Shown: positions 138-59,800, counted from the first letter of the stretch. The stretch is DNA of 64,000 bases from Patescibacteria group bacterium (GCA_045541795.1 JAZQJV010000018.1:197134-261133), one strand, 5' to 3'. The notes: generated by a model from the letters alone, not told the origin. Made by a program: numbers and translations.

Positions 138-1529
138 ATGACTGGCATCAGCCATGGTGACACCAGTCTCGCGCTGGAAAAGAATAATTTTTTCCTGGTC
201 GGGATTAAGGGAGTAGGGATGACAGCCCTCGCTTCCTGCCTGGTAGATGCTGGCAAATCTGTCGCCGGTGCCGATACGGATGAGCGTTTTCCCACCAGTC
301 GCAATCTCGAGCGGCTTGCTGTCCCCATTACTCCATTAGACGGCGATCTCCCCGAAGATACCCAAGTCGTCATCTACACCGGCTCTCATGGTGGCCGCAG
401 TCAACCTCTCGTCCAGCAAGCCATCGCTCGCGGTCTACCAGTCTACTCACATATGGAAGCTTTAGCCTGGTTTTTTAATCGCGCTCGCGGTATCGCTGTG
501 TGTGGTGTCGGCGGTAAATCCAGCATTTCTGCCATGCTCGCTCACATCACTGCCAAGAGTGAGCCCCAATCATACGCTGTGGGCGTAGGCGAGATTATTG
601 GTCATGACCGCACTGGCCGGCTTATAGACGGCAGCAAATACTTCATCGCCGAAGCTGACGAGTACATTGCTGATCCCACTACCATTGGCACGAGCCAGGC
701 GCATATCCGCTTCCTGTATCTGTATCCACAAATCATTATCTGTCCCAATCTCCGTTTTGATCATCCTGATGTCTACCGCGATTTTGCCCACACCCAAGAA
801 GTTTTCCTGCAGTTTTTCACTCAGCTCAAGACCGGTGGCGTCCTGATTTACAACGGTGACGACCCTCACCTTACCAAGCTTGCCGCCCAGCTGCGCGCCA
901 AACGTCCAGACGTGACCACCATTAGCTACGGCCGAGCCGATACTAATGATTATCCGCTTGCCAAAAAGAAAATTCAGCTGGCCATCCCGGGAGAATATAA
1001 CCGCCTCAATGCCTTAGCGGCCATGCTCGCCGCCAAGCAAATTGGTCTCACCGATGACATCATCCGCGACGGCCTGGCCTCATACCGTTCTGTCAAACGC
1101 CGGCTGGAATATTTGGGCAAAAGAAACGGCGTGGAGATCTGGGATGACTACGCCCATCACCCCAGCGAAATCAAAGCCGTCATAGCTGCCATGCATGAAA
1201 AATACCCCAAGGGGCGTCTGGTCGTGGCGTTCCAACCGCATACCTATTCCCGTACCAAGCAGCTTTTTGACCAGTTTGTAGATGCGCTGGCGACTCATCA
1301 CGAACTGTGGCTGCTCGATATTTTCGCCTCTGCCCGGGAAAAACTAGATCCCAGCATTACCAGTCAGATGCTTGCCCAGGCTCTCGCCCGTAAGTATCCT
1401 GATGTCAGCGTCCACGCTATCGGCACTGTGGCCGACCTGGCCGCCAAAATCAAGACTGATTTACACTCAGGTGACGTCTTACTCACCATGGGCGCCGGTG
1501 ATATTTACCACGCGGTCACGAGCGATTGA
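138..1529 (+). CDS. murC: UDP-N-acetylmuramate--L-alanine ligase
   Basis: N-terminal GIKGVGMTALA Rossmann motif, central GVGGKSS P-loop and a typical MurC C-terminus (FQPHTYSRTKQLF...LLTMGAGDI). Confidence 0.85.
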   Translation: MTGISHGDTSLALEKNNFFLVGIKGVGMTALASCLVDAGKSVAGADTDERFPTSRNLERLAVPITPLDGDLPEDTQVVIYTGSHGGRSQPLVQQAIARGLPVYSHMEALAWFFNRARGIAVCGVGGKSSISAMLAHITAKSEPQSYAVGVGEIIGHDRTGRLIDGSKYFIAEADEYIADPTTIGTSQAHIRFLYLYPQIIICPNLRFDHPDVYRDFAHTQEVFLQFFTQLKTGGVLIYNGDDPHLTKLAAQLRAKRPDVTTISYGRADTNDYPLAKKKIQLAIPGEYNRLNALAAMLAAKQIGLTDDIIRDGLASYRSVKRRLEYLGKRNGVEIWDDYAHHPSEIKAVIAAMHEKYPKGRLVVAFQPHTYSRTKQLFDQFVDALATHHELWLLDIFASAREKLDPSITSQMLAQALARKYPDVSVHAIGTVADLAAKIKTDLHSGDVLLTMGAGDIYHAVTSD

Positions 1530-1544
1530 TTTAGCGATCTGTCC

Positions 1545-1586
1545 TATATTATATCACAATATGTCAGTTTTGTCAAGAGGCAAATT
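1545..1586 (-). promoter_or_regulatory. Extended promoter motif copy overlapping the last codons and stop of murB
   Basis: The minus-strand sequence AATTTGCCTCTTGACAAAACTGACATATTGTGATATAAT simultaneously encodes the murB C-terminus N-L-P-L-D-K-T-D-I-L-stop. Confidence 0.45.
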
Positions 1587-2504
1587 GTCACGGCTCAAAT
1601 CTTCCCGGTAAATCACCACTTCTGGCCGCAACCACACGCCGTATTCATGATAGACGCAGGCCTGGATTTTGCGGGCGCACTCTAGGATGTCAGCCTGGGC
1701 TGCGGTGCCTTTATTGACGATAAAACTGCAATGTTTGCCGGTGGCAGCCAGGCAGCCTGTCCAATCTAAGTGTAATTGGTCAATCAAAAATCCAGCGGGG
1801 ATGAGGGCTTGCTTCGCAAATTGAGGAAACCTTGACTGCAGATCGGGTGTATTGGGCGGATTTTGCCAAAAACAACCAGCGCTTGGCTCACTGAAGGCTT
1901 GAGTTTGCCGTTTTTTGGCCATCAAGGCTCTGGCCTGACGCGCTAGTAAATCAGGATCAGCGCCTGGTGTGACTTTGAGCCAGACGTTGGTAATGACGAG
2001 AGCGGGATTTTTTTGCAGTCGAGAATAGTCATAGGCAAAATCTAGTTCGTCTGCGCTCAAACACAAAAACTCACCCCGATCTCGGTCAAAAACTTCGATT
2101 TTCTCCACGAACGCACCAATCAGGATACCGCCAGCGTGAGCATTCCCCCAGACAGCGCCGCCCACACTTCCCGGCAGCGTGGTAAAGTTTTCTAGGTTTT
2201 TCCAGCCGTTTTTGACTGCCTGCCAGGCTACCTGCGCTATCATGTCGCCGGCCCAGATTTTTACGCCCGTGCCGATCAAAGTAAGCGGCTCGCCAGACGG
2301 CATCATTTTCCAGACTAGAGGAATTTCGCCGTCTGGCAGGAGGCTATCGCTGCCCCCGCCCAAAATCAAGACTTTATCCTGACCGGCAAATTTTTGCGCT
2401 GTAATCAAGTCCTCGCGCGTGCGGATTTCCCAAAAACTAGACGCTATCCCTCCCACTTTGATACTGGTGTACGGGGCTAATGATACGTTTTTTCTCTCGC
2501 TCAT
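1554..2504 (-). CDS. murB: UDP-N-acetylenolpyruvoylglucosamine reductase
   Basis: FAD-binding N-terminus (LAPYTSIKVGG, LILGGGSDSLL) and MurB C-terminal domain. Internal ATG at 2504 chosen as start; the ORF extends to 2624. Confidence 0.85.
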   Translation of the reverse strand: MSERKNVSLAPYTSIKVGGIASSFWEIRTREDLITAQKFAGQDKVLILGGGSDSLLPDGEIPLVWKMMPSGEPLTLIGTGVKIWAGDMIAQVAWQAVKNGWKNLENFTTLPGSVGGAVWGNAHAGGILIGAFVEKIEVFDRDRGEFLCLSADELDFAYDYSRLQKNPALVITNVWLKVTPGADPDLLARQARALMAKKRQTQAFSEPSAGCFWQNPPNTPDLQSRFPQFAKQALIPAGFLIDQLHLDWTGCLAATGKHCSFIVNKGTAAQADILECARKIQACVYHEYGVWLRPEVVIYREDLSRDNLPLDKTDIL

Positions 2505-2574
2505 GCGGCCGATTATACCATAAAATTGCCAAAACTGCCAACCAAAACCCGTTTTTTTCTGGTATAATATAGCA

Positions 2575-3000
2575 GTGATAACGGTAAACCTATTTGTTAA
2601 CTCGCATTTCTTAGTCGACCGCAAAATGCTCCGGCAGCGGACGATAGATTTTTTGGCGGCTCACACTCTGGAAAACGCAATCGTCGACGTCCATGTAGTC
2701 GGCTCACACAAAATCAAGCAGCTCAACGAGCAAATTGGTCACGAGGGTGTGACTGACGTGCTGTCATTCCCGCAATACGACCCCAAAGAAAAGGATTTTA
2801 CCCTGCCGCCCGGCGTGCCGCGCCACCTCGGAGACATCGTGATCAATTACGCAGAAGCGGTCAATCAAGCCCGTAAACGGGGGAAAATGGTGGATGAGCA
2901 AGTCTGGTTTTATCTTGAACACGGCCTGCTGCACTTACTAGGCTTTCATCATGATGACGGTATGGAGGAAACTTATGTTCGCCCCCCGCTGGACTTATAA
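2575..3000 (+). CDS. ybeY: rRNA maturation endoribonuclease YbeY
   Basis: H..LHLLGFHHDD metal-binding motif (HGLLHLLGFHH) and length of about 140 aa. Confidence 0.75.
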   Translation: MITVNLFVNSHFLVDRKMLRQRTIDFLAAHTLENAIVDVHVVGSHKIKQLNEQIGHEGVTDVLSFPQYDPKEKDFTLPPGVPRHLGDIVINYAEAVNQARKRGKMVDEQVWFYLEHGLLHLLGFHHDDGMEETYVRPPLDL

Positions 3001-4045
3001 AAGTCATTTTAGCCTGCTCCAGTGGTTGGGGCTGCTGGCCAGCCTGACGATAATATCTGCTTTGATCGTGTGTTGGCAGATAAGCTCGACTTACCGCAGT
3101 TTTTTGCAGCAAAGCGGACTTTCTGGTGATCAGCTGTGGTCACTGATACGCCAAGCCGCGCTCACAAGCACCCTCAACCAAGACGGCCAGACGAGCCTCT
3201 TACTTCTGGGGACAGACGAGCTCGAGACGCGCCCGGGTAATTGGCCGCTTACAGACACCATGATGCTGATCAAAGCTCAGCCTGAGTTTAGCAACATCAC
3301 TCTGCTTTCGCTGCCGCGCGACTTAGTCTTGCCCGGGGACAAAAACAGAATTAACGCGATATATCCCATATTTTATCAAGAATCAACTCAAACGGCTGGG
3401 CTGGCGACTGCTCAGTATTTATCCAGCCGGCTGGATATACCCATCCATTATCAGGTAGTAGTCACGATGCGTGACGTCGCTGATTTCATTGATCTGGTGG
3501 GCGGGGTGGACGTGGAAATTGCCCGTTCGTTTATTGATTACCAGTATCCACGTGACGACGTGGACGTCACCACGGTGCGCGATCCCCAGCTGCTTTATGA
3601 GACGGTGGAATTTACTGCCGGCCCGGCGCATTTAGATGGGCCGACGGCGCTCAAATTTATGCGCTCGCGCCACGCTCAAAATGAAGAAGGCTCTGATTTT
3701 GCCCGCGCGACGCGTCAGCGGCAAGTCATTGAAGCGCTCGCCAGCAAACTTGGCGCGCGCTTTCGTGATGATCTGCGCCGTTATGATTTGCGCTTACTGG
3801 GTGAGTGTTACCAATTTTACAATGATCGTTTTGCTGATCAATTACCATTTACACACGCACTCGCACTGGCTTTAGACTTTCTCTCGCGTGAACGGCTACC
3901 ACAAGTATCCAGTGGACGCTTGAGCGTCGATGAGCCTGGCAGCGTCTTACATGAAAACAAGCGCGATTTCACGATTCAAGCAGACAGTCTGGAGGCACTG
4001 CGCGCGGCCGTGCGTCGTGAGCTTAAGTGGGGCAGTGGCGAGTAA
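2951..4045 (+). CDS. LytR-CpsA-Psr (LCP) family cell-envelope polymer transferase
   Basis: N-terminal TM helix, then LLLLGTDE..R...DTMML, LSLPRD, GGVDV and FMRSRHA...G.D..R..RQRQV motifs typical of the LCP domain. Confidence 0.75.
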   Translation: MMTVWRKLMFAPRWTYKSHFSLLQWLGLLASLTIISALIVCWQISSTYRSFLQQSGLSGDQLWSLIRQAALTSTLNQDGQTSLLLLGTDELETRPGNWPLTDTMMLIKAQPEFSNITLLSLPRDLVLPGDKNRINAIYPIFYQESTQTAGLATAQYLSSRLDIPIHYQVVVTMRDVADFIDLVGGVDVEIARSFIDYQYPRDDVDVTTVRDPQLLYETVEFTAGPAHLDGPTALKFMRSRHAQNEEGSDFARATRQRQVIEALASKLGARFRDDLRRYDLRLLGECYQFYNDRFADQLPFTHALALALDFLSRERLPQVSSGRLSVDEPGSVLHENKRDFTIQADSLEALRAAVRRELKWGSGE

Positions 4046-4134
4046 GATCAGCTAAATTTCCCCGCCGCCGTGTCATTTTGCGCGGCCCGAAATGCTACGT
4101 GTACGATGTCACTTTTCGTGATATAATACCCAAT

Positions 4135-4944
4135 ATGTCCGCCAAAACATTCCGACCATCACGCCCGCGCTACGCCAAACGTCCCGCAAGCAATTACCAC
4201 TCTCCCCGTACAAAGGTGCGCCCGTCTTCAAGATCAGATCGCAAACTCATCCGCCCCCTTTTTTGGCTTTTGGCACTGTTGATTTTTTTCGTGGTCATCT
4301 ATTTTTTGACCCGTCGTTTTTTTGTGGTGCGCCGGGTGGGTTGCATCATCAATCGCACGAACACGCCTTGCTCAGCGTCGCTGTGGGAGGCTGCCCACAA
4401 GCTGCAGGGCCAACCGCTGCTTTTTGCAGATTTTGCCACTATCCTGGAGAGCGCCCACACTGAGGGGACTGATTTTGACTATGTCACGTACTATAAGATC
4501 CTGCCCGATAGTGTCATTGCTGATTATCATTTCCCTTCTCCCGTCTACTCACTCAGTATTGGCGATGGCAGCCCTCTCGGTTTTAGTCTTGACGGCCGCT
4601 ACACGATCGCCACGGGCGAAGCCGACCTCATTCACATCCGCTCTCATTACGCGCCGCTCAATGAGCGGCTGGCTCAGTTTGGGGTGGACGAACTTTTGCA
4701 CCAAAAATTTCTGGAATTGGATTTTTATTCGCGCGGGCACCGGGATAATTGGCAGTGGGTGACTCTCTACTCGCGCGGTCACATGCAAATTGCCACGCCC
4801 AATGCCGTCTATGATGTGGACCCCTTCCAGCTGGATGAAAACCTGCAAAAACTTTACTACGTCGAAAAAAACCGCCACAGCGACAAGTATCAGGAAATTG
4901 ACTTGCGGCTCAATGTCCCCGTCGTGCGAGACTTGGTAAATTAG
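4135..4944 (+). CDS. Putative cell division protein FtsQ/DivIB (basic cytoplasmic N-terminus, single TM, extracytoplasmic domain)
   Basis: Sits immediately upstream of ftsA-ftsZ. Topology is a basic N-terminus, one TM (LFWLLALLIFFVVIYFL) and an extracellular domain of about 190 aa. A TGATATAAT -10 box lies at 4118-4126. Assignment rests on synteny and topology. Confidence 0.4.
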   Translation: MSAKTFRPSRPRYAKRPASNYHSPRTKVRPSSRSDRKLIRPLFWLLALLIFFVVIYFLTRRFFVVRRVGCIINRTNTPCSASLWEAAHKLQGQPLLFADFATILESAHTEGTDFDYVTYYKILPDSVIADYHFPSPVYSLSIGDGSPLGFSLDGRYTIATGEADLIHIRSHYAPLNERLAQFGVDELLHQKFLELDFYSRGHRDNWQWVTLYSRGHMQIATPNAVYDVDPFQLDENLQKLYYVEKNRHSDKYQEIDLRLNVPVVRDLVN

Positions 4945-21187: not shown

Positions 21188-21306
21188 CAGCAAGGCGGAT
21201 CATGTCAACTCCAAAAAAATTTATCGACTGTACTCGAAATTTTCCCAAATTTCGTCAATTTATCGACTTGAGTCGTAATTTTTGCCGTCACCATCGTCTG
21301 GCAGCT

Positions 21307-22878
21307 CTCATGACTGTCTGGATCATTTTTGCCGCCGCTTGGGTCTGGCTCAGCCGCGCTCATGCCTTTAGCTTCAATTTCCACGACGAGACTGATCACG
21401 TGGCCGTGGGCTATTTCCTCTATCGTGATCACCTGCGCCTTTACCAAGATCTCATTACGATCCATCAGCCGCTACCAGTGCTAGTGGGCGGCCTGTTTGC
21501 GCTGCTAGTGCCTCACGCCACACTGTATGCTTTTATTTCCCGGCTGCGTCTGCTGATGGCTTTATTTTGGGCTGGTGCAGGCACCGTCCTGGTTTGGCGC
21601 TTTCGCGCCCGGGGGCTTGTCGCCAGTGTCATCACCTGTTTGCACGCCTTCCCATATTTTGGTTTTTTTGTCTTGGCCGAATCCCTCGTCTGGCCAGCAG
21701 TCGCTTATCTGATCCTAGCGATCGCTGAGCAGTGGTGGCCACCAGCTACTGCGGCCCGGCTGCAGCGCCCGCAAGACAGTATCATCTGGGGTGCGCTTTG
21801 CGGTTGGTTGATTTTTAATCTCTTGCCGCTGGCGCCGTTTATCATTGCGGCTACCATTATCTATGCCTGGCCTCGCCGCCAGGCCTGGCGGCGGGAAGTG
21901 TTGCTCGTTTTTGGCGGCTTTTTACTAGTGGCACTGCCCATCTTTTTACTAGTCAGCCCTGTCTCTTGGTTTCGCCAAACCATCGTCAACTTCACTCAGT
22001 ACTGGTCGGCAGACATCCAGTCGTCAGCGCCGGCGGCGCTCACTCATCTCGGCCTCTGGCTCACTTATCCCTTGGTATCGGGATTTATCAGCTATCGCTC
22101 ACCCAGTCTCCTCATTTGGGCGGTCTTGATCATCTACCCGCTGATAATTTCTTATACCCACTCACGCCAGCAAGGCCTGCGCGTGACACTGCTGTATGTA
22201 CTCGTCGTCTTGCTCAATAACCGCGTCAATACTCCGGCCGCCACTCTGTATGAAGGCTTTCATTTATTGCCGTATTTGGCCGGTCTGGCGGCCTTTAGTG
22301 CCGCTGTCTGGTGCGAGCTCTGGCCGCGTGCCACCCGCCGCATCCGCGCCGACGTCATCGTTTTGTCGCTTGTCGCCTCCGGCATTGTCGGCGCCTGGCT
22401 GATCCAAGGTGATGACCGCCAAGCCAAATATGAGATCTTATTTTTGCCGGAGCAGTCACTCATTAATGTCATCAATATCCTCAAAAAACCCGGCGATCGG
22501 CTCCTCACCGGCGAGGAAGGCTATGGTTACCTCAATCTGCTCACGGGTATTCCTTTTGCCGACCGGCAAAACTTTCACCTCTACTGGTCTTGGCGCTCGC
22601 CCGAATTGCGCCAGGATTTCCTCGATACCTTTGCCAAGCGCCCACCAGCCTTCGTCTACTTCCCCAATCACACCGGCCGCGGTATGCCGGATCTACTGCA
22701 TGAGACGATTCTCCCAAGCTTTTACGTGAGCATCACCAATCCCGGCGGTACACCGAGCGATCTTTTTTATCGCGCAGATTTGGCCGCCAGCCTCTCGGCC
22801 GCAGTGCGCGCTGATCTGGCCGCCACTTACTATGCTCTTGCGGCTGCCTCCAGCGCCAGCCAGCTGGCTGCCGACTAA
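21307..22878 (+). CDS. Polytopic membrane protein (about 12 TM), possibly GT-C-fold glycosyltransferase-like
   Basis: Many TM helices then a C-terminal soluble region. The ORF opens at 21202, but the 5-prime 100 nt contains direct repeats, so the ATG at 21307 is the more likely start. Confidence 0.5.
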   Translation, partial: LMTVWIIFAAAWVWLSRAHAFSFNFHDETDHVAVGYFLYRDHLRLYQDLITIHQPLPVLVGGLFALLVPHATLYAFISRLRLLMALFWAGAGTVLVWRFRARGLVASVITCLHAFPYFGFFVLAESLVWPAVAYLILAIAEQWWPPATAARLQRPQDSIIWGALCGWLIFNLLPLAPFIIAATIIYAWPRRQAWRREVLLVFGGFLLVALPIFLLVSPVSWFRQTIVNFTQYWSADIQSSAPAALTHLGLWLTYPLVSGFISYRSPSLLIWAVLIIYPLIISYTHSRQQGLRVTLLYVLVVLLNNRVNTPAATLYEGFHLLPYLAGLAAFSAAVWCELWPRATRRIRADVIVLSLVASGIVGAWLIQGDDRQAKYEILFLPEQSLINVINILKKPGDRLLTGEEGYGYLNLLTGIPFADRQNFHLYWSWRSPELRQDFLDTFAKRPPAFVYFPNHTGRGMPDLLHETILPSFYVSITNPGGTPSDLFYRADLAASLSAAVRADLAATYYALAAASSASQLAAD

Positions 22879-26101: not shown

Positions 26102-26184
26102 GCCCTGGTGGTGGAATGGTAGACACAGCAGACTTAAAATCTGCCGACCGCAAGGTCATGCGAGTTCGAGTCTCGCCTGGGGCA
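26102..26184 (+). tRNA. tRNA-Leu (anticodon TAA), long variable arm
   Basis: Anticodon stem GCAGA/TCTGC with loop CTTAAAA. Extra arm present. T-arm GAGTTCGAGTCTC. Confidence 0.85.
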
Positions 26185-26221
26185 CGAGGTTTCACGAAAT
26201 GCAAAATTAAAATCTTTTCAT

Positions 26222-26231: not shown

Positions 26232-26404
26232 ATTTTGCCCCTTGACACGCGCGGCTATTGTGCTACAATGATTTGGCATCCGTGAGTAGTAAGTAACGTA
26301 GAAAGTAAAAAATCCAAAAAAACGCTTCCAAAAATAAAATGATGTAAACCATCTTGCTGTAGATAACCAAGCTATCTGCGCGCCTTAGAGAGTAGAAAGG
26401 CATT

Positions 26405-27769
26405 ATGTATAGCAAATTTTTGGGGCGTTTGTTCCTCACGGCTAGTTTCATCCCGCTGGCCGTGGGGCGTGCTGCCGCCGCCTCCAGCACTACCACCACG
26501 ATGAAACTGATAGACACCCCGCTGGCTGCAGTGGTGGGTACGGGGGGACGCGTCAATCTCATCCGCACGGCAGATAACACTTGGCAAGCCACGGATAACT
26601 CCAACTGCCCAGACGGCGCTGCTTATCCCAACGGCACTGCTCACTGTTTTGCCGCCAAAGGTGATTACACCGCCGCCCAGGTCTATCAGTACTCCTGCCG
26701 CAAGCACACCTGCTCAGCCGATACCGTGTGGAATCCCGCCTCAGGCACCTGTATCCCGATCGTGGATTACGGCTGTACCCACACCAATAACTTCATGACA
26801 CTGCAAGACTGGGACGGCTGTAGTGCTCTGGCCACACCGGCCGCCGGCGGCAATAATTACACCGCTGGGCCGTGCTTGATCGACAATCGCGACGGCAAGA
26901 CGTACAATGTCCGCAAATTTGCCGACGGCAAATGCTGGCTGGCCAACAACTTGAAGTTTGGCGGCGATTATCACTACTGGCACAATATCAAAGGTCAGTC
27001 AGCTGATACCTGCGCGCTGCGGCTGGGCAGTAAGTGGCAGTCTGGCGGCTTCAACAATCTCTATACCAATCAGTCTGCGGCCAAGCCGCCCACCAATCGC
27101 TTCTGGCAAGGCTCTTACGGCGACTGCGTCTATCCGTACTCATCCACCTCTAGTAGTGATGCCAGCAATAAATACGGCTATCTTTACAACTGGATGGCAG
27201 CCGTACAGTCTCCTTGCGGCTGGTATAGTCAAGAATGTGATCCTGACGCCATGGCGACCAATACCGACGGCAAAGGCACCTACGGGACGCAAAAAATCCA
27301 AGGCATTTGTCCGGAAGGCTGGCATCTGCCCACGGGCGGTACTGGTGGCGAGTTTAATATCCTCACTGACCGGGTTGCTGGTATCACTGGTGGCAGTAGT
27401 CACTTGGCCGATGAGTCCAATACTGCCGGCGGTTGTTATACCAAAGGTAATACTACCTGTGGTATTTGGTCTGATACTAGCCGCAATGGTGGTAACGGTA
27501 GTTACGTTTTAACTTTCTTCAACCCTGGAGGAGGTTTTAATACTACTTATGCCGGCCGTACCAATTACATTGGTGAGTCTGGGGCTACAGAAACTACTGC
27601 CGTCGGCCTGATCTACCAGGGGTCGAACGCGCGCTATTGGTCCTCTACTGCTAGGTCTACTACCAACGCCTACGGCTTGGACGTGTACAGCTCGGGCGTG
27701 AGACCCCTAGGCTACCATCCGGGCGACAGCAAGTACTACGGCTTTTCGGTTCGCTGCGTGCTGGATTAG
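26405..27769 (+). CDS. Secreted Fibrobacter-succinogenes-major-paralogous (FISUMP/DUF1566-like) domain protein; DGR variable (target) protein
   Basis: Signal peptide. Motifs DNRDGKTYNVRKFADGKCWLANNL, YGYLYNWMAA, CPEGWHLPT and GFSVRCV match TIGR02145-type domains. The C-terminal 58 codons form the VR. Confidence 0.8.
   Translation: MYSKFLGRLFLTASFIPLAVGRAAAASSTTTTMKLIDTPLAAVVGTGGRVNLIRTADNTWQATDNSNCPDGAAYPNGTAHCFAAKGDYTAAQVYQYSCRKHTCSADTVWNPASGTCIPIVDYGCTHTNNFMTLQDWDGCSALATPAAGGNNYTAGPCLIDNRDGKTYNVRKFADGKCWLANNLKFGGDYHYWHNIKGQSADTCALRLGSKWQSGGFNNLYTNQSAAKPPTNRFWQGSYGDCVYPYSSTSSSDASNKYGYLYNWMAAVQSPCGWYSQECDPDAMATNTDGKGTYGTQKIQGICPEGWHLPTGGTGGEFNILTDRVAGITGGSSHLADESNTAGGCYTKGNTTCGIWSDTSRNGGNGSYVLTFFNPGGGFNTTYAGRTNYIGESGATETTAVGLIYQGSNARYWSSTARSTTNAYGLDVYSSGVRPLGYHPGDSKYYGFSVRCVLD
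27588..27764 (+). repeat. DGR variable repeat (VR) at the 3-prime end of the target gene
   Basis: About 175 bp matching TR (30483-30655). It differs at 18 positions, every one an adenine in TR. Confidence 0.9.
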
Positions 27770-27781
27770 GTTTCCGGTTTG

Positions 27782-27866
27782 GGGCGCGGCTGTGGACCCA
27801 CGACCGGCGGAGCTTATGCGCAGCCGAGGCGGCAGCTTGCTGCCAGCCACAGTGGGGACCGGCCGC
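27782..27866 (+). promoter_or_regulatory. GC-rich inverted-repeat/hairpin structure immediately 3-prime of VR (DGR homing-associated structure)
   Basis: ggcgcggctgtgg...ccacagtgggg...gccgcgcc imperfect long stem plus inner perfect hairpin GGCAGCTTGCTGCC. Confidence 0.6.
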
Positions 27867-27959
27867 GCCGGCCACCAAAAAAGTAGCTTGAGCAATAAAA
27901 ATTAATTAGAAAAAATTATAAATTATAAAGTAAATCAAACATCAAAAAAAAGGAATATT

Positions 27960-28946
27960 ATGACGACAAACTCCAAAAAAGCACCCATCAAAAATCAGGC
28001 CGCGCCGGCCAGCAACTCTGGCGTCGCCAAAAAAATCACCAGTGCGGGCGGCGAGCAAAGTGATCTTTTTGCCGGCATGGCTCTGCCGGAGGCGGCCAAA
28101 AAAGCCGAAGCTCGGGTCTTCAAGGTGGGCCTGAGTGCCAAAGAAAAAAAGACCGCCGCCAAAATCAAGGAAATCCGCAACCGCGACCACAAAATCGGCC
28201 TGATTGACGAGTGGATCGAGGCCGAAGACGCCAATTTTGACACGATCATCCTTCACAAAGAGTACGATATGTTTGTGGCTTTCAACCAAAGCGCTTATCA
28301 GCTGCGCGTCAAACTCCATCCTGGCCTCAAGCTCTACTTACAGCTCAACAAATACCGCCCCGAAGCCTTACGGGTGGCCTTGGGCAAAAATCAGCTGATA
28401 GACATCCGCCTGGCGGCCGAGGAAGCGGGCTTACAGATGCAAGAGTTCAAGGATGACAACCAAGAAGTGCAGACTATCATCATCTCCGGCCTCGCCACCA
28501 TCACCAGTGAAGAATTTAATAACTGGAAAGCCTCATACATTGCCAATATCGAAAAAGCCCAAGCTACCATCAAACCATTTTACGGCGACCTCAATATTTA
28601 CAAAAGTCTCATGGATCTATCCGTGATGGAAATGCACGCCGTGGGTAATTTCCCGCGTCACATCCGTGAGGTGATCGGCCCACAATTACTCTCACTAGTC
28701 ACGGCGGCCATCGCTCTCATCCGTGATGCCACCCTCAAAAAAGAAGACGAGCTGCCGCTGCCGCGCAAAATCGCTGTGGTGATGGAGCTGGAGAAAAATA
28801 TTGATCAGCAGGGATTTTTGCTACAGACATCTCTCAATCTCCAGGTGCTCAATACCGATAGCTTTGCCCGGCTCGCCAGTGTCATGGGTGAGCTCATCCA
28901 TCAGCTCACAGCCTGGAAATTATCCCTCAAAAAGAAACGGGCATAA
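27960..28946 (+). CDS. DGR accessory protein (328 aa; basic N-terminus, helical C-terminal region possibly Avd-like)
   Basis: Sits between VR and RT in the position usually occupied by avd, but is about 2.5 times longer than a canonical Avd. No recognisable enzymatic motif. Confidence 0.5.
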   Translation: MTTNSKKAPIKNQAAPASNSGVAKKITSAGGEQSDLFAGMALPEAAKKAEARVFKVGLSAKEKKTAAKIKEIRNRDHKIGLIDEWIEAEDANFDTIILHKEYDMFVAFNQSAYQLRVKLHPGLKLYLQLNKYRPEALRVALGKNQLIDIRLAAEEAGLQMQEFKDDNQEVQTIIISGLATITSEEFNNWKASYIANIEKAQATIKPFYGDLNIYKSLMDLSVMEMHAVGNFPRHIREVIGPQLLSLVTAAIALIRDATLKKEDELPLPRKIAVVMELEKNIDQQGFLLQTSLNLQVLNTDSFARLASVMGELIHQLTAWKLSLKKKRA

Positions 28947-28973
28947 GTAAAAAACACCGGTATATAGGCAAAA

Positions 28974-30227
28974 TTGAATGGTATCATGATCGTCGATCAA
29001 GGTGAAGTCTGGTTTGAAAGCCGCCGTCAGCAATATGTAGACAGTAATGACTGGCAGCTTTATGAGCGCCTCCTGACAGCTTATTTTGACGCCCGTCGCC
29101 ACAAACGCTCTACCAATAATCAGCTGGCATTTGAAATTGATTTGCTTCATCACGTCCAAGAACTATACGACGCCATCCATGATCGTCACTATACCCTCGA
29201 GCCTGGCATTGCTTTTGTGGTAGACGACCCCAAGCCACGCGAGATTTTGGCCGCCTCTTTCCGCGATCGGGTCGTCCATCATTTTGTCTGCAGTCTCATG
29301 ACACCGTACTGGGAGCCGCGTTTTATCGCCGACTCATATTCTTGCCGGGTGGGCAAAGGTACGCACTACGCGATCGCCCGGGCCCACAAGCACGCCCAGC
29401 GCCTCACGCACAATTACCGCGATGAAGCCTGGGTACTCAAACTCGATCTCAAGTGTTATTTTATGTACATTGACAAAGCCGTCTTGTGGGAGCTGATCCA
29501 GCCGATGTTTACGGCTGATGAGGATGCGCTCGCGGCCGGGCGCATCAGTGAGGAAGAGGCCCGCTATCATCTGGTACGCGGTTTTAATGACTATTTTGCG
29601 GCTGTTTTGGAATATTTGTTGCGGATCATTATTTTTTCCTGCCCGATGCTGAGCGTCCAGCTGCGGGGCAGACTTGATCGCTGGACGCTCCTTCCTGCCG
29701 AAAAAACCCTATTTATCGCGCCTTTTTGGCGCGGTTTTCCAATTGGTAATCTCACCAGTCAGCTGTTTTCCAATATTTATCTGCATGCTTTGGACTGTTT
29801 TATCAAATATCGGCTAGGCTTTACTCACTACGGCCGCTACGTAGACGATTTATACATGATGGATACGGATAAAACCCGCCTTAAGCGCGCCCGCACGGCT
29901 ATCGGTAAGTTTTTGGCCGACACACTTCATTTGCGCCTTCATCCTACCAAGGTGATTTTACAGCCCGTCAAGTACGGCTTTCCTTTTGTTGGTGGGGTAG
30001 TGCGTCCGCACTCCTGCGTGCCTACTCGCCGTTTCCAAAAACGCTACCAAAAATTTATGACCGGCCACTCTGCCCGGCATTACACCGAGTATCAGCGCTC
30101 CCGCATCGCTAGTTACCAAGGTCATGATACCAAGATCCGCCATCTGCCCGAGCCCAAGCGCACGCTCACACAAAAAAGGCTCAAAAGACTAGCCGACCAG
30201 CAGCAAGCGTGTATTTATCACCGCTAA
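28974..30227 (+). CDS. Diversity-generating retroelement reverse transcriptase
   Basis: RT motifs FRDRVVHH (1/2), SYSCRVGKGTHYA (3), LDLKCYFMYI (A), DGR-specific IGNLTSQLFSNIYL (motif 4, 29742-29762) and YVDD (29838-29849). Confidence 0.85.
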   Translation: MNGIMIVDQGEVWFESRRQQYVDSNDWQLYERLLTAYFDARRHKRSTNNQLAFEIDLLHHVQELYDAIHDRHYTLEPGIAFVVDDPKPREILAASFRDRVVHHFVCSLMTPYWEPRFIADSYSCRVGKGTHYAIARAHKHAQRLTHNYRDEAWVLKLDLKCYFMYIDKAVLWELIQPMFTADEDALAAGRISEEEARYHLVRGFNDYFAAVLEYLLRIIIFSCPMLSVQLRGRLDRWTLLPAEKTLFIAPFWRGFPIGNLTSQLFSNIYLHALDCFIKYRLGFTHYGRYVDDLYMMDTDKTRLKRARTAIGKFLADTLHLRLHPTKVILQPVKYGFPFVGGVVRPHSCVPTRRFQKRYQKFMTGHSARHYTEYQRSRIASYQGHDTKIRHLPEPKRTLTQKRLKRLADQQQACIYHR

Positions 30228-30482
30228 AAAGGGCTTTTTTAGTGTAAAATTAAATGGACGAAAGTCGCTCTTTGATAGCTGACGCCGTGCCCGCCCGCGT
30301 AAAATCAACTCTCGGGTGGAAGAAATCCAGCACAAAAGACCAGCCTGCTGCCGGCTTGCCGAGCGTGATAGGTATTTTGGTACCGGGGCCGCCAGGCCCG
30401 AGGGGTAATCACAAGTGGTCTGCAGTTATTTTTTTCACGTATACTGCACCAGCTGACCGTCCGCCGGTACGGTGATGACGGC

Positions 30483-30655
30483 AAAAAACTGCCGTCGGCC
30501 TGATCAACCAGGGGTCGAACGCGAACTATTGGTCCTCTACTGCTAGGTCTACTACCAACGCCTACAACTTGAACGTGAACAGCTCGAACGTGAAACCCCT
30601 AGGCAACAATCCGGGCAACAACAAGTACTACGGCTTTTCGGTTCGCTGCAATGCT
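30483..30655 (+). repeat. DGR template repeat (TR)
   Basis: Non-coding copy of VR lying 255 bp downstream of the RT gene. Rich in AAC codons in the VR frame (aac x10, aat x2, aaa x1 at variable sites). Confidence 0.9.
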
Positions 30656-30698
30656 GTCATCAGCTCACGGCGTCAGCCAAGGAGTCAGAAATTGACCC

Positions 30699-30728
30699 TT
30701 GACAACACCCCAGCCACGATCTATAATG
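30699..30728 (+). promoter_or_regulatory. Strong sigma70-like promoter (TTGACA-N18-TATAAT) with no downstream protein-coding gene
   Basis: attgacccTTGACAacaccccagccacgatcTATAATg. The next 490 bp on the + strand contain only short, low-complexity ORFs. Confidence 0.55.
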
Positions 30729-31216
30729 AACGCACATCTAAATCGTAGCAAAGAGGATTTTGAAGTTCGGTGTAGATTCAATCTCCTACTGCTAATTAGA
30801 AATCGAGCTTACGTAGATTTCTTCTTACCGTACGTAAGGTTCTGTAACAGCGTGTGGAGTCCAACGTCAAGCGCTTGGATGCGACCTGGTATCGGTTTCA
30901 TGTCTTCAGTCTTTCTCTTTCTTGTCTGAGGTTTCTTGCTGCCGGTAGTGGTGGGGTTGAATTGCGGATGCATTTGGGAAGCGAACTCACACCCGCTCGC
31001 ACACGCTCGCGCGGGCAGCACGCCGTTTGCAGGATAATTGCAGAAGAAATTAATTTTCCAGGCGTCATGCATATTTTCCGGGGGAAGAGACGAGCAAACT
31101 GCCGTTGGTGACCAAAAGGAGTTTTCATCCGAACTTTTAGACCTTTTAAATCACGATCATGACGTTATCGCTCGTGAGTATTATACCATGAAAAAGTTGC
31201 TTGATGAGATTAAAAA

Positions 31217-32350
31217 TCAAGGTAGGTCTAGGTGAGCAATAATTTCCTCCTCACTTGGCAAAACATTTTGTAGGCTGTAGGTCGAAATGCCGACTGGTTG
31301 CCCACTTTTCTCGACTGTCCACTGGGCAACGACACTGTTTTTCTCTTTACAGATTAAAAGTCCGATAGTCTGCTTGTCCTGAGGAGTTTTGATCAGATGA
31401 TCGACGGCATTACAATAGAAATTTAATTTGCTGACAAATTCCGGTTGGAATTTTACTACTTTGAGTTCCACCACGATAAAACGTCGCAGTTTATAGTGAT
31501 AAAACAGTAGATCAGGGGCATACTCGTCGCCATTTACAACTAGCGGTACTTGCCTGCCCACATAAGCAAAGCCCGTGCCGAGTGTGAGTAAAAATTGCGT
31601 AAGATTGTTTTCAATTGCCTGCTGTAGGTCTTTTTCTTGATAATTTCTTCTCAAAGTCAGAAAATCTAATTTGTAATTATCTCGCAGAATTTCCCGAGCC
31701 AAATCACCCTCTGTCTTGGGTAGTGTAAGGGAGAAATTGTTGATTGTCTTGCCTCTTGTCTGGTAAAGTTTGGTATCAAGCATATTAAGCAGTGTTGCTC
31801 GACTCCAGTTGTTTTCTCTTACCTGAGCAATAAAAAACAATGCCTCATTCAGTGATTTGACTTTGGTAAAAATTTCGATGTGATGCCGCCATGGGATAGT
31901 AAAGATAATGTCTAAATGTTCATCTTTCCAATGGTCAATAGACGCTGTCTGCGATTCTGCATCAGGCTGGTGCAAAATTAAACCCATGGTAGATTCGTCA
32001 CCGAGTTGGTGACGACTTGGCAAACCCTTGAACTCTGCACCAAGTTGGTGCAGAATTGGGCTGTAGAACTCGTAAAACCGTTTCATATAGCGGATATTTC
32101 TTGCAGAGAAACCTTGTGCATCAGGAAATTCCACTTTAAGATCACGACTTAAATTATCGTAAAAACGACTGCCGTATTTGTTGTCAAACTGCTTAGTAGT
32201 AATATCTCTCCCTATCCGCCAGTAAAGTCGCAGCATCTGTTCATTAACAGCAATACTGGCTTTGATTTGAGTGTGAGCAATGTCCTTCTTGAGCGTTGAT
32301 AACCAGTGAACGTATTCTTGATTTTTGCTCGCCAATAATTCACTAGACAT
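31217..32350 (-). CDS. YhcG-like PDDEXK-fold nuclease (DUF1016 family)
   Basis: N-terminal DUF1016 region and C-terminal PD-(D/E)xK-like core (APDLLFYHYKLRRFIVVELKVVKFQPEFVSKLNFY). Confidence 0.65.
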   Translation of the reverse strand: MSSELLASKNQEYVHWLSTLKKDIAHTQIKASIAVNEQMLRLYWRIGRDITTKQFDNKYGSRFYDNLSRDLKVEFPDAQGFSARNIRYMKRFYEFYSPILHQLGAEFKGLPSRHQLGDESTMGLILHQPDAESQTASIDHWKDEHLDIIFTIPWRHHIEIFTKVKSLNEALFFIAQVRENNWSRATLLNMLDTKLYQTRGKTINNFSLTLPKTEGDLAREILRDNYKLDFLTLRRNYQEKDLQQAIENNLTQFLLTLGTGFAYVGRQVPLVVNGDEYAPDLLFYHYKLRRFIVVELKVVKFQPEFVSKLNFYCNAVDHLIKTPQDKQTIGLLICKEKNSVVAQWTVEKSGQPVGISTYSLQNVLPSEEEIIAHLDLP

Positions 32351-32456
32351 ATCAGACTTTCTTTTTTATACTTATAATTTACCATAAATAGTGCAAAATG
32401 TCAAATTTTCGTGCAACCTCAGTATATTTCGGAATAAAAATTCCTATCAAACAAAG

Positions 32457-33551
32457 CTATCTAAACTGACCGTTACAATAGTGATCTATTAAAATTCTTC
32501 TGTCAATTGAATCAGTCACTTCGTTATCAATAAATTGTGCACAACTAATGTCTGTTGATTCATGCAATAAAAACTCTGTAAATATCTTGAGAACAGTTTT
32601 TATTTCGCCTGTTTGATTATTTACTGTAAAACTCACACTATAACAATGTCCCATGCAGATATCACTAAAGGGGTTAATTGATGCATCAAATCTCTCAATG
32701 TGATTAGCGTGATCTTCGTCCGTGCTGATATCAGTGATACTTCTAATATGAATGTTTGATAAAGGATAGCTATATTCTTGTTTATCGAAATATTCATCAA
32801 CCGTACCATTAGTTTTTTGCGTGGCGGCGATCAATGAATTTCTTTGTTTTTCTTCAACTTCTTCAAACTCGTCCAGCATGCCCAATTCCCTTAAAGCTAC
32901 AGCATTTGCGTCAAATATTTGCATGTCTGAGTAATAGTATGTCAAAGAATATACTTTGCCGTCATATATGTATAATGCCAATCTATCTCCTTCTTCTATT
33001 CCACCAAAAGGATTACTTAATTGTCTGGTTTGATCTTCGATAAATCCTAACAACAATAGAGCTTTTTTGGCTTGTTCATAATAGAGTTCCATATTATCTT
33101 GATTAACTTCAATTATCCAATAGGCCAAATCGTGATCAGAACCAAAAGAATGTCTAAATTGTGGGCCACTCATAGTTAAAACAGGTTCTAGCGATTTTAA
33201 CCTCCACCAAGTATCGATGCCAACGCCATGCCAGCCTTTGGATTGGCCATATTCCCATCCATCATATAAAAGAAGATATTTTGAAATCTTTTGATTCAGT
33301 TGTGAAGAGCTTTGATTTGCACCCTCTAAATCATCATTTTTTTCTTTCAAATTAGTCAATTCATTTTCGCCAATATTGTCTAATTCCAAATCATGGTCGG
33401 ATGTCTCTTGTAAAGAATTTTTGTCTGACTTTTCTATGGTGAAATTTAAGTACATAGCTATCACAGTCAATATACATAACACTGCTAAAACAAATATAAC
33501 TATCCTTTTGTAAAAAGGCTCTATTGCAGTAGCTTTGTTATTATTTGGCAT
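32457..33551 (-). CDS. Hypothetical membrane-anchored acidic protein (364 aa) in AT-rich DNA
   Basis: Single N-terminal TM then an acidic soluble domain. Local GC is clearly lower than the surroundings. Same strand as yhcG, 106 bp upstream of it. Confidence 0.45.
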   Translation of the reverse strand: MPNNNKATAIEPFYKRIVIFVLAVLCILTVIAMYLNFTIEKSDKNSLQETSDHDLELDNIGENELTNLKEKNDDLEGANQSSSQLNQKISKYLLLYDGWEYGQSKGWHGVGIDTWWRLKSLEPVLTMSGPQFRHSFGSDHDLAYWIIEVNQDNMELYYEQAKKALLLLGFIEDQTRQLSNPFGGIEEGDRLALYIYDGKVYSLTYYYSDMQIFDANAVALRELGMLDEFEEVEEKQRNSLIAATQKTNGTVDEYFDKQEYSYPLSNIHIRSITDISTDEDHANHIERFDASINPFSDICMGHCYSVSFTVNNQTGEIKTVLKIFTEFLLHESTDISCAQFIDNEVTDSIDRRILIDHYCNGQFR

Positions 33552-33628
33552 ATCTGCATTATTACATCACGTTTATATTTCTTATTAATCAAGATTATTC
33601 ACGATTGCGACGAGAAAGACCCTTTTTG

Positions 33629-33702
33629 TGACCCCAAAGGGATTCGAACCCTTGATTTTTTGGATGAGAACCAAATGTCCTGGACCGCTAGACGATGGGG
33701 CC
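33629..33702 (-). tRNA. tRNA-Glu (anticodon CTC)
   Basis: Acceptor GGCCCCA/TGGGGTC. Anticodon stem TTTGG/CCAAA with loop TTCTCAT. T-arm GGGTTCGAATCCC. Confidence 0.8.
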
Positions 33703-56823: not shown

Positions 56824-59800
56824 ATGAAAACGAAATTTAGCCAATTATTACTAAAAATTAGCCCCCTGATGCTGGTTTGCTGCCTCACGCTGCTGTCTGT
56901 CAGCCGCGCGCAGGCCAAAATGTGTTCTTTTAGCGTGGAGGAAGGCGCTACACCCGCTGTCGCCGATAGACGGCTTTATTGGTACAAGAGCGAAAAAGGC
57001 CTCCCGGATGAATACATCCATGACTATGAGCTGACTTATCTCGGGGAAAATGATCCCTGCCCTACGGCCGAATACGACGGCGAGTCAGGACGCATCTTAA
57101 TGAGACCCGACGAAAATTACGCTCCCATGGATCTACTCATACCAGCCCTGGCCGCTCTTGAAGCCCAAGATGCCGACGGTAATCATACCGAATCCCGTGG
57201 TCAGGAGTGGCCGTGGAAGGATTCTGGCACCTACGTGCGCATCGAAGGGCTCTATGACCAAAGTGTCATCCCTTGCGGTACGGCCGTCGGCGACCAGTGT
57301 GACTGGGACTGGGGTATCAATAAAATCACTTATACTTACAAAGGCACTTACAAAGTCGATGCCCAATACGAAATGATGGTGCAGTTGACCAATACCAGCG
57401 GCTACGCCGGGCCAAATTTTTACATCGACAGCTATGACCAAGCTGCCAAAACCATCACCATGTCTCCCGACTGGCGTGGCAGTGAGCACTACTATACCAA
57501 TCCTCACTACGCCCTGGGTGCGCTTTCTGGCGCCTACAAGTACTTAACGGCGCACGACTACTCGGCACAAGGCGAAGTCACCTTTATTCTCGATACCGCC
57601 TATTCATACCCTTACGTACCGATCAAATCCATTACCTACAAAGACGGCAAGCTTAGTAGTGACGTTTTTGTCAGTAGTGTCAGCAATGTCAAGACGATTA
57701 GCTTTGATGAGTTTGACTATGACGGCTACTCGCCAGTGACACGTGTCGCCAGTTATAATCCCGGCTCAATTCCTACCTACTACTACGACCAATCAGTTTA
57801 CCCATACGTCCGCCGCACACTCACTCTCCAAGCCGCCACCAATTCAAGCCTCGAGGCTGCCACCGGTTTGATGGCCATCATGTATGACATTTATGGCAAC
57901 AACACCCCAGCCGAGATTTACTTCACTGGCGAAAGCTTCGCCAAAGCCACCATGAGCATTGTTGGCCAAGAAACATATTACGCCTATCACTTCCCCGATG
58001 ACAGCACTATTAACGGCACCGATATCTTCAATCTCTCTGCCCTCCACCAGGTAGATGCTACCCATTACACGGCTGTCTTTAATGATCAAGCCACACTAGA
58101 TGAAGGCATGATTTTTGCCTTGATGAATCAAGGAAAAGTGTTTGACATCACTTTTGAAGATCCGGCCATGCCTGGCACATTAAATTTTGAAGATGGCGCA
58201 TTTACCTTAAGTTTCGCCGATGCTGAGCTGGCTGGCAGCGATCTCGCGGCAAAAATCACCTCGCTCGAGGCCATTCTCAATGGTGAAAAGATGCAGCCCG
58301 ACCAAACCGCAGTCGACGTTTACGAGCTCGCCAACGACTGGCTGATCAATGTCGACGGATCCGACATCACCTATTTAAATTTCTACCTCGAGACGCCCTA
58401 TTTTGGCCGGCTCATGACGATTGATCTCGAGGACGAATCAATAAATGTCGACTATACTGACTATGTACTTGCCCCAGGTACTTCTGCCAGCGATGCTGCC
58501 ATTATCTACATGCAACTGATTGGTCAATATCTGGACGATGAACCAGAAACATTTGACGATAAAGGCGTCGCCGCCGACTCTATCGACGAACCTATCAACC
58601 GGATTTATTACGACGCGGACTCCGCGCGTACGAAGGCGATCCTCATGGGTAATTCCACCTTTGCTGACGGGCTTAATATCGCCTCGCTCATCACAAACGG
58701 CGTCGAGGTCAACTACCAAGTCGGCCACCCGCTCTCCATCATCACCCATGTCTATGACGAATTTGACGTCATCCTCAGTGAAAACGCCACCCAAGCCTGG
58801 CTGCGGGAGCACTTAGCCGAGCTTACCGGTTTCCCCGGCATCGGCGTGTACACTGGTGACGTCATGGATGGCCCCGTCCACCAGCTTGGTGACATTCTTT
58901 TTGCCGGCACGGATGAGCAAGGCAACCTCGCCCTTGATTATTACGCCTCAGACGAAATTGATGTCTACATTGACCAGGCGGAAAGTAGTATCATTCATGA
59001 CGCCAGCGCCAGCAGCGAAGCGGCTTTAGTCAAAGAAGTCGGCCTCGTGGCAGATCTAGTCGCGCATCTTGGCCTTGACGAGCAAGTAAATATCACGGTC
59101 GGCACTACCCCAGGCGCCGCTGTAGCCACCATTGACGCTCTCCAAGGCAAAGCCGCCAGCGGACAAATTGTCCTCCACGTCACTGATCATACCGGCACTT
59201 ACGGCACTTTCTCCGTCCTGCAGATGCCCGAGCTGCAAGAGCAAACCAGCTCCTGTGGCCGTGACGGCGTCCCATACTGCGCTCACCCAGACACTTACGC
59301 CGGCAAAACGCTCATTTTTACCAATGATCTTGCACCCGCCACCATCCAGCAGCTGGCCGCTAGCGTCCACTCAGATAAAAATTACTTAGTGATGGCGCAG
59401 TCTACCAGCCAACCGGCGCAGACCGCCTCCCTCTGGAGCAAGCTCATCAAGCAGGCCTATGCCGCCAGTACCAATTACTATCTGCTCGAGTATGACGCCA
59501 GCAATCAGCTTCAATCCCTTGGCGTCACCACTCTTGACGACTCCATGCAAGCCATCATTGACAGCTGGCGTCAAGTTGCCGGTGACTTTACCCTGCGCTT
59601 GCTAAACGAGCAGGCCATCAGCGAAGCTACCCTCATTTACCTGGCCACCACCAGTGACACCGCTTTTGCCGATGTCATCAACTACGTGGCCACAAACGCC
59701 GCCGACGGCCTCAATGCCGAGATCTACGGCCAAGACTTTGCCATCCTCGTGATCGCCGGTAAAGTGACTCAGGTCAATTTCACCGAAACGACTACAAGAG

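Follow-up and report, generated by a model that had tools for sequence, protein, structure and literature searches.

The 64,000-nucleotide stretch of a Patescibacteria group bacterium analysed here (hereafter, the window) very probably carries a chromosomal diversity-generating retroelement (DGR) at positions 26242-30677, with its parts in the order target gene with a variable repeat (VR), accessory gene, reverse transcriptase (RT) gene and template repeat (TR). Apart from DGRs, no natural system is known by which prokaryotes hypermutate proteins in a targeted way. An initial annotation of the sequence had proposed a complete DGR of this make-up; every component was found, and VR departs from TR at template adenines only. 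The element fits published categories in both its target (category ‘d’, CLec2) and its core order (avd-RT-TR), and is ordinary apart from its two-domain accessory protein, a rare, apparently single-chain combination of a MutS-like (Msl-like) and an Avd domain that is common to a small lineage of related DGRs. It offers a clean, compact, chromosomal example from an uncultured Patescibacteria-like lineage, and each well-defined DGR adds a ligand-binding scaffold and a candidate tool.

Adenine-specific variation in a C-type-lectin-like target

Within 25-32 kb of the window, a repeat finder returned one long direct repeat, pairing 27591-27757 (VR) with 30483-30649 (TR) at an offset of 2892 nt. Base-by-base comparison of these plus-strand copies showed the repeat to be 167 nt long, ungapped and 90% identical. 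The interior mismatches number 16, and the TR base is an adenine in 16/16, with the VR bases C,T / T / C,G / G,G / G / T / G,G / G / T / C / G / G. With 47 adenines among the 167 TR positions, the probability of all 16 mismatches falling on adenines is 1.8e-10 (hypergeometric); none of the 120 non-adenine positions differs from VR. Two extra mismatches at the 3′ edge of the repeat (27758-9) face AA in TR and bring the total to 18. Re-alignment thus bears out the adenine specificity claimed in the initial annotation, and the 255 nt separating the start of TR from the RT stop (30227) agree with it as well. The repeat described there (VR 27588-27764, TR 30483-30655) is real, but its ends had been drawn a few bases too wide, leaving copies of unequal length. 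A search of the whole 64-kb window found no second VR.

VR is in frame with the target gene, at whose 3′ end it covers codons 396-451 of 454, and its changed positions span 27594 to 27729. Read in this frame, TR contains 11 AAC codons, one AAT, two AAA and one AAG; changed in VR are 9 of the 11 AAC, the AAT and both AAA, plus a further AAT at the edge. The AAC-based design had been recognized before, with a tally of ten AAC and three AAT/AAA codons that the present counts correct. Adenines at positions 1-2 of AA codons were changed in 15/30 cases, as opposed to 0/13 of the other adenines (Fisher P = 0.0013). The lack of change at these 13 adenines of scaffold codons points to a present allele that is under selection and functional. 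The final 28 nt of VR (27730-27757) are identical to TR, including all four adenines, as expected of a 3′ boundary or of a region resembling the site for initiation of mutagenic homing (IMH); the homology then stops abruptly at 27757/30649.

The target gene (26405-27769, plus strand) encodes a 454-aa FISUMP-domain protein with a C-terminal C-type-lectin-like (CLec) domain. A hydrophobic N-terminus similar to a signal peptide suggests that the protein, which has 17 cysteines, is secreted. Scores exceeded the curated cutoffs for TIGR02145 (FISUMP; 76.3 vs 41.65 bits) and PF09603 (48.2 vs 33.9 bits), whereas DUF1566 (PF07603), the other half of an initial ‘FISUMP/DUF1566-like’ label, gave no Pfam match to the target at E ≤ 0.01; some distant homologues carry PF07603. 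The variable codons sit in a CLec-type fold, as first suspected: a fold search with the target returned CLec proteins, three solved DGR variable proteins among them. Targets of the DUF1566/DUF823/Fib_succ_major type constitute DGR category ‘d’, which comprises 14% of DGRs, has CLec2-type VRs and includes Legionella LdtA (PMC5758913). Like the members of this category, the window has a FISUMP/Fib_succ_major target with VR lying over a C-terminal ...YWSS...GFSVRC. About 12-14 Asn/Lys-templated codons would by themselves permit roughly 5e16 protein variants, and the target is possibly a factor for cell-cell or cell-surface recognition.

Reverse transcriptase and accessory protein

The RT gene (28986-30227, plus strand) encodes 413 aa from an ATG; an upstream TTG at 28974 would extend the product to 417 aa, and the ATG is also the start of the sister-strain gene P0001 introduced below. 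Its open reading frame (ORF) matches Pfam RVT_1 and contains PKPR (with R85), IGNLTSQ (residues 253-259, nt 29742-29762) and YVDD (residues 285-288, nt 29838-29849), so that both parts of the DGR-RT signature named in the initial annotation could be located. The best PDB sequence match, by a wide margin, was 8ub7_A (E = 2.6e-30, in two collinear segments). Since Foldseek output labels 8ub7 ‘Diversity-generating retroelement (DGR) ribonucleoprotein reverse transcriptase’ and names chain B as Avd, we take 8ub7_A to be bRT, the RT of the Bordetella phage DGR. Group II intron and retron-type RTs in the PDB matched at 5.7e-7 or worse, that value belonging to a group II intron RT. In the alignment to bRT, PIGNLTSQ of the window falls on PIGSLTSQ and RYVDD on RYMDD. 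DGR RTs share the signature [I/V/L]GxxxSQ, and Arg74 and Ile181 of bRT promote adenine mutagenesis (Handa et al., PMC7826257); the equivalents of both residues are kept in the window RT, as R85 within PKPR and as I253. These sequence comparisons support a place for the enzyme in the DGR clade, closest among solved RTs to bRT and apart from group II intron and retron RTs.

The RT also matched PHROG 1423 (phrog_1423, E = 7.5e-82), and phage RTs, those of Bordetella phages included, matched it at 30-38% identity. Some 75 additional residues between motifs 3 and 4 set it apart from bRT; by eye, this insertion is apparently present in the RT of one related locus (L002) too. Two other RT classes were considered and rejected: as a group II intron RT/maturase it reached 87.2 bits with TIGR04416 (cutoff 300), with no Rfam group II intron in the window, and among retron and defence RT classes, Retron St85 reached 33.6 bits (cutoff 235) and the Drt models stayed far under their cutoffs. 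In PADLOC, a generic RT model fitted best and class-specific models matched partially. Exact-sequence look-ups of the window RT, of P0121 (identical to the target) and of the next relatives P0122 and P0005 found no record.

Between target and RT lies the accessory gene already seen in the initial annotation (ORF 27960-28946, plus strand). Its 328-aa product is not a plain Avd, being an N-terminally extended protein of two domains. Residues 1-85 (27960-28214) form a Lys/Ala-rich extension (pI 10.0) of low model confidence that is missing from most homologues, residues 86-205 (28215-28574) an acidic, putatively MutS-domain-I-like (Msl-like) α/β domain (pI 5.2) with a linker helix, and residues 206-328 (28575-28946) a basic, Avd-type four-helix bundle (pI 9.1). 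The AlphaFold2 (AF2) model, with a pLDDT of 35-58 for residues 1-60 and above 90 from residue 85, lays out a β-β-α-β-β-α-β-β domain (96-176), the linker helix and the four-helix bundle (213-327).

The C-terminal half has the Avd fold. Pfam, NCBIfam and PADLOC gave no match to the window accessory, and neither the protein nor the family profile picked up anything but noise among PDB sequences; PHROGs recognized ‘Avd protein of DGR’ at residues 209-326 (E = 1.1e-4), and did the same for the 244-aa homologue from L002. An exhaustive HMMER search of 1.84 billion cluster representatives recovered only 21 relatives of the accessory, nearly all of ~240 aa and aligning to residues 83-326, with a DGR RT adjacent in every case with visible context. 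When Pfam was applied to each family member, the C-terminal half matched bAvd-like in 15/22 and 23S_rRNA_IVP in 5/22.

As to the α/β domain, sub-threshold Pfam matches and the order of strands and helices lend moderate support to its being MutS-domain-I-like. MutS_I (PF01624) matched the N-terminal half of 4/22 members, collinearly and always below the cutoff (best 19.0 vs 20.6 bits, E = 0.0017), with no match to the window accessory itself. The predicted β-β-α-β-β-α-β-β order is the same as in MutS domain I. Aligning the family to residues 1-125 of E. coli MutS with hhalign gave the expected register and put a conserved Phe on MutS Phe36, at a probability (0.66%) that is not significant.

Msl, a MutS-like DGR accessory, is known as a separate gene beside avd (PMC5758913; 10.1101/2024.11.15.621889). 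No description of a fused Msl-Avd form was found in a literature search, outside of which lay the MSL sequences in the supplement of Wu et al. It is conceivable, if rather doubtful, that the 240-330-aa accessories of this lineage are an undescribed single-chain fusion of Msl and Avd. Since Avd sits on the RT-RNA complex as a pentamer, a fusion would bring as many as five mismatch-binding-like domains to the retrohoming machinery, where they may engage the mismatch-dense cDNA:VR heteroduplex or shield it from host mismatch repair. Were the two modules truly fused, this would argue that Msl acts physically with the RT-Avd ribonucleoprotein, would bear on how DGR cDNA escapes mismatch repair during homing, and would provide a stoichiometric, tractable handle on Msl's part in DGRs. 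A rationale for a mismatch-binding-like accessory comes from Bacteroides DGRs, in which host MutS suppresses retrohoming (Macadangdang et al. 2024, 10.1101/2024.11.15.621889).

Conservation, flanking elements and activity

The closest relative of the RT, P0001 (98% identical), is encoded on a 4.5-kb JGI contig (L001), here called the sister strain; the next relatives are ≤ 50% identical. The contig is collinear with window positions 28201-31086 and then resumes directly at 33628, which places the DGR at the same locus in the sister strain. TR is identical at 166/167 positions, the sole change being synonymous in the VR frame, while the flanking genes are ~2% divergent. Between the two strains, the accessory gene shows 19 synonymous and 0 non-synonymous differences and the RT gene 15 and 7, so both are under purifying selection. 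Accessory and RT genes of the sister strain overlap in ATGA, an overlap that is also seen in the gene coordinates of the related loci L006-L008 and is lost in the window; translation of the two is probably coupled in the sister strain.

TR is bracketed by complementary sequences. An outer upstream arm (30278-30289) forms a perfect 12-nt inverted repeat with 30666-30677, and an inner arm (30473-30483) pairs with 30652-30662, so that the inner pair abuts both ends of TR; the downstream arms together (30652-30677) are a candidate for the spacer-like part of a DGR RNA. The 60-nt flanks of TR formed a duplex with z = -3.1 (2/300 shuffles as good), a level also attained by 2/119 genomic controls of the same geometry. 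By inspection, two sister-strain substitutions in the inner upstream arm keep the pairing in RNA as A-U/G·U. Complementarity between sequences upstream and downstream of TR has been described for the Bordetella DGR RNA (10.1101/2023.10.23.563531). At gathering thresholds, Rfam returned only tRNAs in the window, and around TR nothing at E ≤ 1.

Beyond VR, nested GC-rich inverted repeats occupy 27778-27875 (27783-27790/27862-27869 and 27790-27795/27847-27852, with a hairpin at 27831-27836/27839-27844), 21-118 nt past the end of the homology, and may represent a target-site stem-loop. Stem-loops, some of them strong, occur at the corresponding position in all relatives (z = -2.7/-2.8 in L002, -5.1 in L003 and -9.2 in L005). 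Upstream of the target, a promoter-like site on the plus strand (26242-26269; TTGACA-16-TACAAT with an extended -10 TG) matches 11/12 consensus positions 135 nt before the target start; promoter-like sites in the region are in total no more numerous than in shuffled sequence, so this one stands as a consensus match only. It is a candidate promoter for a unit of target, accessory, RT and TR.

No GC-rich terminator-like site was found on the plus strand between the genes and TR. By eye, a hairpin built of A and T alone, with a run of T residues behind it (TAAAAAGGGCTTTTTTA), spans the RT stop codon at 30225-30246 and could act as a weak terminator or attenuator between RT and TR; the terminator scan missed it because its stem has no G-C pairs. 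A perfect sigma-70 consensus (TTGACA-17-TATAAT, 12/12; 30699-30727, plus strand) lies 50 nt past TR and faces an ORF-poor stretch, 30733-31216, which has no ORF longer than 85 aa and is conserved in the sister strain up to 31086. A structured noncoding RNA in this stretch was considered and discarded (no Rfam match at E ≤ 1; fold z = +0.29).

These parts suggest how the element would operate. A promoter near 26242 would drive plus-strand transcription of the cassette, probably as a single unit, and pairing of the sequences just upstream and downstream of TR would close the TR-containing RNA. The DGR-type RT would bind this RNA together with the Avd-type accessory, which here also carries the MutS-domain-I-like module, and would copy TR into cDNA, misincorporating at template adenines. 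At the 3′ end of the target gene, VR would give way to this cDNA, with the homing boundary presumably marked by the invariant last 28 nt of the repeat and by the downstream stem-loop, and the Msl-like domain may engage the mismatch-rich cDNA:VR heteroduplex.

Judged from its sequence, the DGR is probably working. Indirect evidence favours a functional element: divergence at non-adenine positions is zero, the motifs are intact, the genes are under purifying selection, scaffold adenines are kept, and adenines of AA codons have changed at ~50%, a figure that may be set beside the ~52% per-adenine misincorporation of bRT in vitro (PMC7826257). Several observations weigh against this reading. Comparison of VR between strains is precluded by the sister-strain contig, which starts inside the accessory gene and holds no VR; two assemblies with the same RT (L008 and L009) have identical VRs, and when metagenomes were scanned with the target protein, no relative above 34% identity came up. 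With all its adenines masked as N, a 48-nt pattern from TR had no match in metagenome and viral contigs, a null that is uninformative because the sister-strain contig, carrying the identical segment, was not retrieved either. Compared with the sister strain, a 43-nt insertion (window 28945-28985) separates the accessory stop from the RT start and probably uncouples their translation, and at the position aligned with MutS Phe36, a Phe in most homologues, the window accessory carries Met. Pairing of the TR flanks was not significant in L002 by the same test. The GC-rich cruciform that the initial annotation placed after VR is present as inverted repeats, yet its fold is marginal: the whole 146-nt stretch is no better than chance (z = -1.17), and the z values of -2.0 for a trimmed 103-nt region (7/200 shuffles) and of -2.5 for the central hairpin are weak, as both were picked after inspection. 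Nor was an IMH/IMH* of the Bordetella type found there, the last 28 nt being identical in VR and TR and free of a G/C run. The IMH of phage BPP-1 consists of (G/C)14 plus 21 bp that differ between VR and TR, an arrangement not required of all DGRs.

The absence of observed VR variation in the metagenome scans and the L008/L009 pair, the uncoupling insertion, a post-VR stem-loop that is the weakest of its family and the Met at the Phe36 equivalent could also be read as signs of a relic, a DGR by descent that is now inactive and whose VR/TR differences are a frozen record of past retrohoming. We consider this improbable, as a relic is at odds with 0/120 non-adenine mismatches between VR and TR in the face of ~2% flank divergence between sister strains, with the purifying selection on both genes, with catalytic and signature residues that are all intact, and with a TR at least as conserved as its flanks. 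Far less credible still is a DGR carried as cargo by a mobile island or prophage integrated between tRNA-Leu (26102-26185) and tRNA-Glu (33628-33702). Besides the two tRNAs, such an island would be in keeping with a low-GC segment by tRNA-Glu that encodes a candidate defence nuclease, and with the nearest named RT relatives being Bacteroidales and phage DGR RTs at 30-45% identity, for which an ancient horizontal acquisition is possible. Yet the DGR and the genome have the same GC content (0.51-0.53), genes for an integrase, phage functions or conjugation are missing between the tRNAs, att-like direct repeats were not found, and the DGR occupies this locus in the sister strain too, where 31087-33627 is absent. 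Related DGRs sit among different housekeeping genes, two per genome, and viral contigs gave no match in the TR-pattern scan mentioned above. The ‘tRNA-flanked island’ of the initial annotation thus lacks support, given the typical GC content, the housekeeping neighbours and the shared locus.

Known DGRs, related loci and genomic surroundings

Among characterized elements, the DGR of phage BPP-1 (mtd-avd-TR-brt) resembles that of the window in an RT of the same clade with [I/V/L]GxxxSQ, YxDD and the Arg74/Ile181 equivalents, an accessory with Avd fold, adenine-only differences from TR to VR, and a ligand-binding CLec-fold protein with VR at its 3′ end; complementary TR flanks and a candidate stem-loop downstream of VR are further likenesses. 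In contrast to BPP-1, the window element is chromosomal rather than phage-borne, has TR after the RT gene, lacks a (G/C)14 IMH, carries the ~75-residue RT insertion between motifs 3 and 4, and encodes an accessory of 328 aa with an extra domain instead of an Avd of ~128 aa; its target is a FISUMP protein, that of BPP-1 a tail-fibre protein. The core order avd-RT-TR corresponds to published architecture B2 (PMC5758913). In the Legionella DGR, Msl likewise accompanies Avd, whereas in the window the two modules apparently form one polypeptide.

Bacteroides DGRs (10.1101/2024.11.15.621889) provide the closest named relatives of the window RT (Bacteroidales, 40-45%) and likewise include an accessory resembling a MutS mismatch domain. 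They diversify type V pilus tip adhesins, and some (Bfr, Bth) are located on integrative and conjugative elements (10.1101/2024.11.15.621889). The window differs in that Msl, separate there, is apparently fused to Avd, in its FISUMP target and in its chromosomal location. DGRs of the candidate phyla radiation (CPR) mostly follow architecture B3, TR-(avd)-RT, which makes up 90% of the set from the CPR (Wu et al. 2018, PMC5758913). With these, the window shares a compact chromosomal DGR beside housekeeping genes and, judging by TGT relatives, plausibly the host lineage; it departs from them in a same-strand accessory that is apparently joined to an Msl-like domain, and in a TR downstream of RT.

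Upstream of the DGR lie genes for PGM, EF-P and CoaE and the tRNA-Leu, and downstream of it the tRNA-Glu, TGT and an ABC transporter. For TGT, the nearest relatives with a name are Patescibacteria (~50% identity), closer matches coming from metagenome-assembled genomes (MAGs); an epibiont with a reduced genome is a plausible host. The segment 31087-33627 beside tRNA-Glu (~2.5 kb, GC 0.36-0.41) is absent from the sister-strain contig, which keeps the DGR, and so constitutes an insertion separate from it; neither att-like direct repeats nor an integrase were found for this segment. On its minus strand, 31217-32350 encodes a YhcG/DUF1016 PDDEXK nuclease, a PADLOC candidate defence family (PDC-S02, E = 6e-129), and 32457-33551 a 364-aa protein with no family match. 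Elsewhere in the window, three ORFs had no Pfam match at E ≤ 0.001 (21202-22878, 558 aa; 56824-60435, 1203 aa; 60648-63473, 941 aa).

Six related loci (L002, L004, L005, L006, L007 and L008/L009) consist of an accessory gene for ~245-278 aa followed by RT and, wherever the contig is long enough, have a FISUMP target with TR between target and accessory. VR/TR mismatches in these relatives fall on TR adenines in 26/26, 21/23, 16/16, 20/21 and 20/21 cases. Their cassettes sit among housekeeping genes that differ from locus to locus, and two MAGs carry two each. Profile scans of genome contigs with the trimmed accessory alignment found two loci only, and a scan of genome contigs with the window RT found nothing.

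Contigs of this family tend to break at or near VR/TR: L005 begins within the end of a VR (1-21, ...VRCVKN*), L003 stops ~100 nt past its target gene and the first bases of L001 fall, as mentioned, in the accessory gene, which fits assembly breaks induced by repeats or heterogeneity. L002 encodes three tandem FISUMP paralogues (157-4667; 390, 571 and 460 aa), of which only the last matches TR over its full length; the 571-aa paralogue has a 31-nt match to the 3′ end of VR and Cys-rich tandem repeats of 96-99 nt. These paralogues may be former or alternative targets. A direct repeat of 66 nt in L002 (3069-3134 and 7215-7280; 97% identical, 4146 nt apart) flanks the last target and the TR-accessory-RT block, and may mark the bounds of a duplicated or mobile unit.

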